Both the position numbers and the translations under genes were made by a program. The notes beneath the pieces are model-generated. The model had not been told where the DNA came from and searched no databases. It was given only the letters and a program-made list of their open reading frames with translations. A stretch of DNA of 64,000 nt from Nannocystales bacterium (GTDB lineage: Bacteria > Myxococcota_A > Polyangia > Nannocystales > Nannocystaceae), in assembly GCA_050633305.1 (NCBI GenBank), contig JBOEGF010000024.1, forward strand, positions 288,001 to 352,000, written 5' to 3'. The stretch's first letter is position 1. Every line of letters starts with the position of its first letter. Positions 40,466 through 43,400 of the stretch are shown here, one piece after another.

Positions 40466-43400
40466 ATGACGCGCTCGAGCAAACAATCACTTTGGGCGCG
40501 TCGTTGGACGCCGCTGAGCCTCCTCTGCGCCCCTGCTTCTCTCCTCCTTTCCCTGCATCCGCAGGCTGCGACGGCCTCGATGGGGCTCCCCAACGCCGCC
40601 ACGGTTCTTCCGATGGTCGGCGTGCCCAACCAAGTCGACGGTCTCTCCGTCGAAGAGTTGGACGATGGCACTACGGTGCTTCGACTCAAGGGGACCCTCA
40701 AGCCGACGTTCAACGTCTATCGGCTGGATGATCCGGACCGCTTGGTCGTCGACATCGCCAAGAGTGCGAAGGGGCAGGTGGTTCCACATGTACCCCTGGA
40801 CACCTGGGCATGCGGTCGTGTGACCGTGGGTGGCGTTTCCGAGCGTGGGGCGGACCTGGTTCGGGTCGTCGTGCAGCTCAAGCGCGAAGCGAGCTACATC
40901 GTGGTGCCCGATGGCGACACCCTCGTCGTCACGGTCACGCCTCGAGAGGCTCCACCTGAGCAGTACTTCAGCCGCAAGAGCGCGACGAAGCGCAAGGCGG
41001 AGATGGAGTCGCAGCAACGGCGGGCGAAGAAGCTCGAAGCCGACGCGACCAAGCTCAAGGCGGCCGCGAGTGCGGAAGCGAAAGCGGCACGCGCCAAGGC
41101 AGAGGCCGCGACCCGAAAGGTCCGCTCGGCTGAAGCCGCGGCGAAGCAAGCCCGCGCCGCCGAATCACGTGCCCGCGCTTCGGAGGCCGAGGCCAAGCGC
41201 GAACTCAAGGGCGCGAAGTCGAACCGGCTTCAGGTTCGCCGGGCGCTGAAGAAAGCGACACAGGCCCGCGAGAACGCCGAGTCGGCTCGCAAAGCAGCCG
41301 AGCAGAAACTCGCGAGTGCCGAGACCACGGCGGCGGCGAAGCGCAAGAACGCTGAACGCTTGCTCGCCGATGCCGAAGCGGTCGCGCGCAAGCGCCTCGC
41401 GGACGCCGCAAAGTCGAAGGCCCAGGCCCAGCGTGAACTCGCGGATGCCCGTGGCTCGAAAGAAGCGGCGAAGGTCGAGCTCAGCGTGGCTCGAGCGGAG
41501 GCGGCGAAGTCGAAGGCCGCGAGCGCACGGCGTCTTGCCGAGGCCGAAGCCAAGGCCAAGAGCGCGCAGTCCGATGCCGAGCGGGCAAAGCGAGCCGCTG
41601 CACAGGCGGACGCCGAGGCGAAGAAAAAACTCGCCGCTGCCGAATCCAAGGCGAAGGCGCGTTTGGCCGCAGCACGCTCGGAGGTCGCAGCCGCAAAGAA
41701 AAGTGTCGCGTCGGCGGAGTCGAAAGCGAAGCTCCGTCTCGCGGCCGCGAAGTCCGATGCGGCGGCTGCCGAGAAGCGGGCCTCCGAAGCCGAGCAGCGT
41801 GCGAAGACGATCTCCGCGGCCGCTGAATCGAAGGCCAAGGAGCGGCTGGCCCAAGCCGATCGGAATGCGCGTGCGACGGAAGCCAAGGCCGACCGGCGGG
41901 CACGGGCAACCGAGGCCAAGGCTGAGCAACGCGCGGCCGCCATCTTGGCATCGGCGCGGGATCGAGCTGCGAAGGACTCCGCCAAGGAGCTTGCCAGCGC
42001 AAAGCGTGCCGCAGATGCCCTGGTCGCCAAGGCCAAGAGCGACGCGACCGCGTTGAAGAAGAAGCGTCTCGCAGAAGCCGAGGCGGATGCGGCGGCCAAG
42101 GTCGCACGGGCCGAACGCGCCGCGCGGACCTCCGCGCAGAAGCGCCTGGACGCCGCCGAGGCGGAAGCCGAGAAACGGCTCGCCAGCGCCCGGAAGAAAG
42201 CCGAGAAGGATGCGATCTCTCGCGCGGAGAAGGAACTCGCACGCGTCCGTAGCCGCGGGGAGACCGAAGTCGCCGCTGCCGCGAAAACGGCGCGTTCCAA
42301 GGCGCAGACCGACGCCAAGAAGGAACTCCTCGCCGAGCGCACGCGTATCGAGGCTGATGCCAAGCGCCGTGTTGCGGCTGCGGAGTCCAAGGCTGCCAAG
42401 GCCGAGGCTGCAGCCGAAAGCAAGATGGCGCGGGCTGATGCGATGCTCGCCTCGGCATCGAAGACTCTGGCGGAGGCCAAGGCCGACCGCGCCGCTGCAC
42501 AGAAACTACAGAAGACGGCGGAGCAGAAGCTCGCCTCGGCCGAAGCTGCGCGCAAGCGTGCGGTGTCGGAGAAGGCCAGCGCCGCGCAGCAACGGCAAGC
42601 TTCGGAGAAAGCGCTCGTCGAAGCGCGAGCCGCCGCGGAGTCGAAGCGAGGCCTGGCTCGGCGACGGGCCTCGGCTCGCCTGGCCGAGGCCGAGAAGTCC
42701 CGCGATGCGGCAGTGGCCCGTCAGAGCGCGGCAGCAAAGAAGCTCGGTGCGCTCGAGCGCCAGGCCGAGAAAGCTCGGTCGGCCCGTGACTCGGCCCGGA
42801 CGGACAAGGTCCAGGCTGAGGAACAACTCGCGGCACTGGCACAGGAGCGAGACTCGCTCAAGTCCCAGCTTGCAAAGCGCGACGCCGAACTCGCGGCGAT
42901 GCAGCGCAAGATCGATGAGGCTCCGGCGAAGGAGCGCGATGCGCTTCGGGCTCAGCTGGCACAGCGAACCGCGGAACTGGCGGCAGTCCGAGGCAAGCTC
43001 GACGAGGCCCCGGCGAAGGAGCGCGACGCACTCAAGGCCCAGCTTGCGAAACGAACTGCCGAGTTGGCGGCGATGGAGCGCAAGATCGAGCAAGCTGCTG
43101 CGAAGTCGGACTCCCGCTCGGCATCCGCAAAATCGAAGAAAAAGCGAAGCGCGCGAGGTCCGGCGAAGGTCCAGGACGTGCGCTTTGAGAACGACGGCTC
43201 GGAGTCGCGTGTCATCGTCGAGTTCAACGGCGCTGCGCGGTACGAGGGAATGACCCTCACACCGACGATTCAGATGCTGCGCTTCTCGGATGCGAAGCTC
43301 TCGCGGAAGCTCGAGCGCTCGCTCGACGCGTCGAAGTACGACGGCTCGGTTCGTGTGGTGACCAGCTTTGCGGAGGGGGATGACGCGAAGGTCATCGTCT

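Follow-up and report, generated by a model that had tools for sequence, protein, structure and literature searches.

The window, a stretch of 64,000 nucleotides from a Nannocystales genome, carries a pilMNOPQ operon (37462-44983, plus strand), recognised from the open reading frame list and Pfam matches, with pilQ as its last gene (Table 1). The encoded PilQ matched two AMIN stretches, STN, Secretin_N and Secretin in Pfam, and scored 408 bits against the PilQ profile TIGR02515 (cut-off 284) and 202 bits against the GspD profile, below the cut-off of 351 for the latter. Its best PDB match was the 901-aa PilQ of Myxococcus xanthus (3jc8/3jc9, E 6e-150), and its N-terminus has the features of type IVa PilQs, namely a signal peptide (recognised by eye) and AMIN domains. 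Elsewhere in the genome there are seven T2SSE-family matches, and on contig C27 a long one lies beside two short ones, a pattern fitting pilB/pilT. Judged by domain content, profile scores and operon context, the protein is a genuine type IVa pilus secretin PilQ.

Table 1 Features of the pilMNOPQ operon and of the predicted PilQ protein (positions in the window; aa, PilQ residues)
Feature	Position	Strand	Basis and remarks
pilM	37462..38523	+	Pfam PilM_2, E 1e-64
pilN	38520..39215	+	Pfam PilN; membrane-to-core coil of 60 aa, a normal length
pilO	39228..39872	+	Pfam PilO; coil of 55 aa, a normal length
pilP, lipoprotein	39872..40447	+	Pfam PilP at E 0.0012, below cut-off; operon position
pilQ, whole gene	40466..44983	+	One open frame, 1505 aa; Pfam and TIGR02515
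Sec-type signal peptide of pilQ	40466..40576	+	Basic, then hydrophobic, A-T-A at 35-37; by eye
AMIN1 of pilQ (aa 55-160)	40628..40945	+	Distal, putative peptidoglycan-binding; equals M. xanthus AMIN1
Neck 3' of AMIN1	40946..40993	+	P164, Y167, F168 and A173 invariant in 70 family sequences
Stalk (aa 161-899)	40946..43162	+	Ala/Lys/Arg/Glu helix with heptads/hendecads; putative parallel coiled coil; ~109 nm
87-bp (29-aa) tandem repeat, 2.8 copies	42843..43089	+	Contains both stalk prolines
Last AMIN of pilQ (aa 900-1002)	43163..43471	+	Pfam; equals M. xanthus AMIN3
Pro/Gly/Ala-rich linker (aa 1003-1075)	43472..43690	+	Composition
N0 (STN), Secretin_N and secretin barrel (aa 1076-1505)	43691..44980	+	Pfam, PDB alignment, TIGR02515

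The two AMIN domains of this PilQ are separated by 739 aa, a segment that we refer to as the stalk. Between residues 166 and 898 it consists of 33% A, 13% K, 12% R and 10% E, with a net charge of +79. A preliminary description of this DNA, made from the letters and the frame list, had reported an intact 1505-aa frame, a nearly Pro-free helical insert between the AMIN domains and an extended length of ~100 nm, and each of these points held: the frame is uninterrupted, prolines are limited to positions 820 and 849, and at 0.1485 nm per residue the stalk would measure about 110 nm if extended. The 87-bp repeat that houses both prolines is the only long DNA tandem in pilQ and has one unit fewer in relatives. 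The repeats named in the same description fit only loosely, AEAKAK occurring once, AE[AS]KA 7 times and [KR]RLAxAE twice. Its label of TolA-like is apt for composition and not for kinship, as no Pfam family, TolA included, matched the stalk at E<=1e-5; ESM Atlas returned AMIN clusters only (scores 0.76-0.83), which serve as leads only.

The insert is very unlikely to be an assembly artefact, since four other genomes of the genus carry inserts of 644-829 aa at the same site, and a close relative from another run has a 58,037-nt contig whose alignment follows the gene collinearly from 40031 to 45101, in three pieces separated at the 87-bp repeat and the linker. A genome-wide leaning to long helices is ruled out as well: among 49,355 stop-to-stop frames the stalk is the longest helix-type stretch, at 740 aa, and the next reaches 368 aa.

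The PilQ core was matched in 51 of 60 related genomes, and the named neighbours in the core searches were Nannocystaceae. For a wider comparison we assembled 101 Myxococcota loci (the window, 40 from a first search and 60 from 164 matching genomes), which were hand-picked and enriched for long frames, so that the tally is not a frequency. Two AMINs with a helical gap of 235-2028 aa (median 644) were present in 71 of these loci, from 26 families, and in all 71 the insert lies between the first and the last AMIN. The remainder comprised 11 loci with two AMINs 15-67 aa apart, six with three AMINs, four with one, two with none and seven cut at the N-terminus. The shortest intact stalk, of 235 aa, would be ~35 nm long, and the range in the clade about 35-301 nm. 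The stalk was absent from all 74 more distant loci (L077-L150). In a second set, for which proteins under 827 aa were left out of the search, 117 of 121 proteins had two AMINs, with gaps of 354-972 aa, among them those of the cultured Plesiocystis pacifica SIR-1 (gap 383) and Enhygromyxa salina (gap 453-482). A third set contained 115 two-AMIN proteins among 119, with gaps of either 6-72 aa (88 proteins) or 493-792 aa (27) and none between; the two-AMIN Myxococcota loci are likewise bimodal, at 15-67 or >=235 aa. Named PilQs from Polyangiaceae, Sandaracinaceae and Labilithrix are of the short form. The stalk is thus typical of a large Myxococcota clade and not peculiar to the window genome, and the idea that it is an adaptation special to this organism is not supported.

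Several variants were noted along the way. The largest PilQs, of 2097-2787 aa, belong to family f29 (e.g. L152:714-9074 (-)); their stalks, the longest of 2028 aa, are nearly Pro-free with long internal repeats, and PilN there measures 304-385 aa. In L071:4744-7281 (+) and L195:2662-5508 (+) the pilQ frame starts within the stalk, and the AMIN1 of L071 is found on a separate frame segment upstream; both are probably frameshifts or assembly errors. No pilMNOP match was seen directly upstream of pilQ within the fetched stretch in L156, L157, L173-L175 (family f36), L159 and L154, owing to either a split operon or too short a locus. Eight genomes of three genera of the same family (G007, G009, G022-G024 and G031-G033; genera g2, g4 and g17) all returned no PilQ-core match at E<=1e-60; their completeness is 82-95%, and each of the five that were checked encodes just one secretin, of about 800 aa, which makes loss of the type IVa pilus secretin in these genera possible.

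Trees were built on the secretin core alone, with a quick IQ-TREE run (95 rows) and with FastTree (107 rows, leaving out the 7 N-cut rows, L195, which starts mid-stalk, and 5 long branches). All stalked rows fell into one clade, with support values, other than bootstrap, of 96 (IQ-TREE) and 99 (FastTree). In FastTree this clade held 72 stalked and 15 unstalked rows and no three-AMIN form, and stalked L187, one of the 5 long branches left out there, lies inside it in IQ-TREE. In the FastTree gene tree the unstalked rows nested in the clade amount to at least 6 separate losses, one of which covers the Polyangiaceae/Sandaracinaceae/Labilithrix group. The simplest reading, which is not proven, would be one gain followed by repeated loss, and the stalk appears to be ancestral to a clade of the sampled Polyangia and several other Myxococcota lineages. 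Since profile scores and PDB alignment equate AMIN1 and the last AMIN with AMIN1 and AMIN3 of three-AMIN PilQs, the stalk would stand at the former site of the middle AMIN. Also nested in the stalked clade are reduced PilQs (L064:822-2417 (-), L211:5526-7109 (+), L053, L061 and L202), which have no AMIN (about 530 aa) or the last AMIN only.

Concerning the fold, 52 of 65 stalks had large hydrophobic residues recurring with a period of 3.47-3.60 (z>=3 relative to shuffled sequences), and the other 13 gave no significant heptad peak. The signal of the window stalk is modest (period 3.55, z 4.9). The Lys-rich stalk of L068:4756-8868 (+), with 22% Lys, 4% Ala and a net charge of +155, yet has a sharp heptad period of 3.50 (z 23). 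The way in which stalks change length points in the same direction. In 41 disjoint pairs of close relatives we counted 78 inner indels. Helical phase is kept by those of 3 aa or more (n=69; score 0.52 versus 0.03+-0.08). Of the 46 indels measuring 5-30 aa, 35 have lengths that are sums of 7 and 11, as do 9 of the 26 integers in that range, and several pairs of close relatives differ by a single uncompensated indel.

Registers were assigned from hydrophobicity with a custom Viterbi script rather than a published predictor. With one stalk per family (n=26), opposite charges paired between g and e' positions at i+5 with z +9.5, and the other six i+5 pairs gave z -1.5 to +1.9; in the family set the signal (z +8.4) is less clean because c-a (+4.8) and d-b (+3.9) pairs also score. 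Such g-e' pairing is a known mark of parallel, in-register coiled coils. In the window PilQ it reaches z +2.6. The two signals of a parallel coiled coil, heptads and charges, are thus positive yet weak in this protein (z 4.9 and 2.6) and strong across the clade as a whole. An antiparallel hairpin was disfavoured by the lack of a charge mirror in all five stalks examined, which is a weak test. From the heptads, the register-preserving indels and the g-e' charges, we infer that the stalk is a parallel coiled coil, in keeping with the long coiled-coil-type rod first proposed; a crown of 12-15 separate helices, as first pictured, is less likely than fewer parallel bundles, given the charge pairing.

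The number of strands is harder to read, as E-h-x-x-h-K/R and R-h-x-x-h-E motifs are both enriched over shuffles, which leaves dimer and trimer inseparable by motif. Arg occupies about 10% of a positions. Since Arg at a positions favours two strands, the stalks lean towards being two-stranded rather than trimeric. Parts of a stalk may be single helices or loosely packed, because large hydrophobics make up 11% of the window stalk and 13 of 65 stalks are without a significant heptad peak. In the family, Ala fills 50% of the d positions, and stalk Ala content tracks GC content (rho 0.59). Net charge ranges from -12 to +25 per 100 aa, with a median of +2.4 and 13 of 71 stalks net negative, and the window stalk stands at about the 90th percentile; basic tethers are therefore no characteristic of stalked PilQs, contrary to the preliminary description.

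Selection on the stalk gave dN/dS of 0.07-0.17 in the four closest pairs and of 0.27-1.10 in four more distant pairs, for which the low-complexity alignment is unreliable. The high values in distant pairs, together with the repeated losses and the frequent tandem indels, could be taken to indicate a tolerated expansion by repeat slippage with little function, or an N-terminal part that is shed after assembly. We regard this as very improbable in view of the retention of the stalk in 26 families, the preservation of helical register across indels and the bimodal gap lengths in both the 115 two-AMIN proteins of the third set and the Myxococcota loci.

How such a rod might fit into the envelope can be gauged from PilN and PilO, whose coils connect the inner membrane to the secretin (PMC11525922). 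The PilN coil had a median of 61 aa both with (n=55) and without a stalk (n=21), and the PilO coil one of 55 aa with (n=54) and without (n=21); even in the loci with the longest stalks they measured 61 and 57 aa. The length of PilN as a whole rises with that of the stalk (rho 0.47), but the membrane-to-core coil does not scale with it, and in L151, the one long PilN examined, the extra length is an acidic, Pro/Ala-rich, low-complexity C-terminal tail. The PilO coil likewise correlates with stalk length (rho 0.43), but its own length varies only between 54 and 58 aa. Equal coils with or without a stalk imply an unchanged envelope gauge at the machine, and thus a rod that would run sideways or be bundled and that probably does not span a wider periplasm. 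A TolA-like vertical strut across an unusually wide periplasm is accordingly hard to credit. It would account for the resemblance in composition to TolA domain II, which is alpha-helical in gamma-proteobacteria, but besides the identical coils, the genome encodes no further periplasm-type protein with a comparable helix, and the stalk exceeds the longest TolA domain II surveyed, of 335 aa (PMC12204202).

Several known systems share parts of this design. The window shares its pilMNOPQ order with M. xanthus, and in the alignment to M. xanthus PilQ residues 33-133 pair with AMIN1, 331-448 with the last AMIN and 473-895 with the core. A middle AMIN and flexible linkers (PMC10653833) take up ~200 residues in M. 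xanthus; in their place the window protein has a 739-aa helical rod, and with only two AMINs it departs from the three-AMIN layout. PilQs of Pseudomonas aeruginosa and Vibrio cholerae also have AMINs that bind peptidoglycan and localise the machine (PMC5285504, PMC12632996), but theirs are two in tandem or one, near the pore, in proteins of 714 and 571 aa (PDB). The PilQ of Neisseria meningitidis carries, between the same two N-terminal beta domains (B1 and B2), a polymorphic low-complexity insert, the small basic repeats (SBR), which is reported to affect piliation (PMC3441751). In that protein, of about 760 aa, there is no counterpart of the long heptad rod. Neisseria SBRs are short, Pro-containing octapeptide repeats, and a PilQ of the SBR type was rejected here because the position is the same but the insert is a 739-aa, nearly Pro-free helix whose net charge is not conserved across stalks. 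TolA domain II is likewise an Ala/Lys/Glu-rich periplasmic helix. TolA itself is defined by an N-terminal membrane helix with an SHLS motif, a domain III and a tol-pal operon (PMC12204202); the window PilQ has neither the membrane helix nor motor coupling nor domain III, its stalk has no Pfam match and is flanked by AMINs within pilQ, and membership of the TolA family was therefore rejected.

As to earlier reports, de Souza et al. (2008, PMC2572700) described some deltaproteobacterial proteins that fuse AMIN to a TolA-like charged helix; in the accessible part of that paper this architecture is set apart from PilQ, and a 1125-aa Plesiocystis PilQ appears with no remark on its insert. The stalked form is absent from the ten-species survey as given in the accessible part of PMC10653833; the corresponding part of PMC6060248 has nothing on PilQ length, and those of PMC3169522 and PMC4488436 nothing relevant. 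We found no description of a coiled-coil PilQ in the open-access literature, subscription papers being outside the scope of the search. The caveat that the insert might already be described as typical of its clade thus comes true only as regards its being typical. That the model myxobacteria are without a stalk would explain why the design has been overlooked so far.

AMIN domains are peptidoglycan binders on which septal and polar recruitment depends in P. aeruginosa and M. xanthus, by a route proposed to be diffusion and capture (PMC5285504, PMC10653833); those of V. cholerae form a ring flanking the pore in situ (PMC12632996), and the pore itself has 12-15 subunits (PMC10653833). Within the stalked clade AMIN1 is the better conserved of the two, its dN lying below that of the last AMIN in 8 of 8 pairs, and it is more diverged where the stalk has been lost (57 versus 92 bits, largely reflecting one loss event; 72 versus 88 bits for the last AMIN). 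Counts of RxxxD/E motifs in the AMINs were not decisive. In the reading that we prefer, and judge about evenly balanced between right and wrong, the stalk would reach out sideways as an arm and keep the conserved AMIN1 attached to septal or polar peptidoglycan well away from the pore. A long parallel coiled-coil arm would thereby replace the middle AMIN of a type IVa pilus secretin. Stalks of neighbouring subunits would zip up in register, most likely as dimers and maybe as trimers, so that a ring would bear about 6-7 rods, each ending in a pair of AMIN1 domains. Lying along the envelope, the rods would hold a high-avidity AMIN1 pair 35-300 nm from the pore (about 110 nm in the window protein), and PilQ could thereby catch septal or polar wall over a wider radius. 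The arms might then moor the finished machine like guy-lines, with the last AMIN and a probable TsaP anchoring it locally. Their length would be freely tuned by 7- and 11-residue duplications, and the near nine-fold range of stalk lengths fits a loose length requirement. The arm would be dispensable in principle, because it was lost at least 6 times and because M. xanthus functions with one AMIN (PMC10653833).

The TsaP in question is a LysM protein (G000 contig C11:20088-21626, plus strand) two genes upstream of dprA, a candidate by architecture and position only. Its presence makes it probable that the arm is not a TsaP substitute, and a stalk replacing a missing TsaP is disfavoured.

Anchoring, the first of the roles suggested in the preliminary description, comes out as the likeliest for the stalk, with an even chance at best estimate, and nothing in the present evidence tells capture or mooring apart from spacing or bracing. 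As a spacer or polar scaffold, the rods would set the distance between machines or interdigitate into a periplasmic mesh at the pole. Parallel coiled coils are able to bundle, and stalk length is typical of families and differs between lineages; a 110-nm rod would moreover give a footprint of about 220 nm, more than 10 times the machine width of 15-20 nm (PMC10653833). For a ruler, however, lengths are loose, shifting by tens of residues in close relatives (644-829 aa within the genus), and with net charges from -12 to +25 per 100 aa we saw no conserved surface for lateral packing, so that we hold this role to be unlikely, if still worth consideration. Bracing strikes us as somewhat less likely again. 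Here rods with wall-binding domains at both ends would spread or buffer the retraction load over a wide stretch of thin wall, as befits the proposal that AMINs counter retraction force (PMC5285504), and the half-alanine d positions would lend compliance; but the last AMIN sits between rod and pore and would be loaded first, a TsaP candidate is at hand, in-plane rods should be poor at resisting a pull directed outwards or inwards, and Ala content goes with GC. Finally, the machine might be positioned or gated by a periplasmic partner for which the coil serves as a docking platform, such as a divisome, polarity or gliding protein or an amidase activator. Purifying selection on the stalk in close pairs and the invariant neck in the family would suit such a platform, which is nonetheless improbable to our minds: neither junction has a cross-family motif beyond the AMIN ends, stalk composition varies widely, and an unsystematic look revealed no co-varying neighbour gene.

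The architecture and the distribution of the stalked PilQ are well supported by the comparisons above, and the fold is deduced from sequence statistics. Secretin N-termini are strings of small globular domains that reach about 10-20 nm from the pore. A rod of 35-300 nm in a 12-15-mer would alter the scale of contact between pilus machine and cell wall, and it bears on how PilQ finds septal or polar peptidoglycan, on what restricts machine numbers at each pole and on the path by which retraction load reaches the wall. On a bolder view, which we rate as doubtful, the secretin of a large part of the Myxococcota would double as a periplasmic cytoskeletal element, with parallel coiled-coil arms of up to 300 nm spreading out from every pore, their tips bound to the wall or the arms meshed with those of adjacent machines, and so setting pilus number, spacing and polar pattern; length would be an evolvable ruler, and the well-studied myxobacteria would be exceptions that never had the arm or lost it. 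The stalk is directly testable because there are a length series, repeated clean losses and cultured strains, and because it can be grafted into M. xanthus PilQ, which offers an exactly homologous position.

The genes around the operon deserve a brief mention. Open reading frames of 200-660 aa without a Pfam match at E<=1e-5 lie at 58984-62501 (minus strand), 28875-29780 (plus strand) and 5604-7355 of the window, and a gene of the bacterial alpha-2-macroglobulin family (1-4284, minus strand) runs past the window start. Downstream of pilQ (45030-53776, plus strand) come aroK, aroB, a 326-aa lipoprotein-like frame, a 119-aa frame, aroQ and accB/accC-like genes. The 119-aa frame has no Pfam or NCBIfam match and presumably resembles a roadblock/MglC protein. 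The same stretch encodes a 1052-aa TPR protein, the N-terminal third of which matches SgmX below the cut-off.
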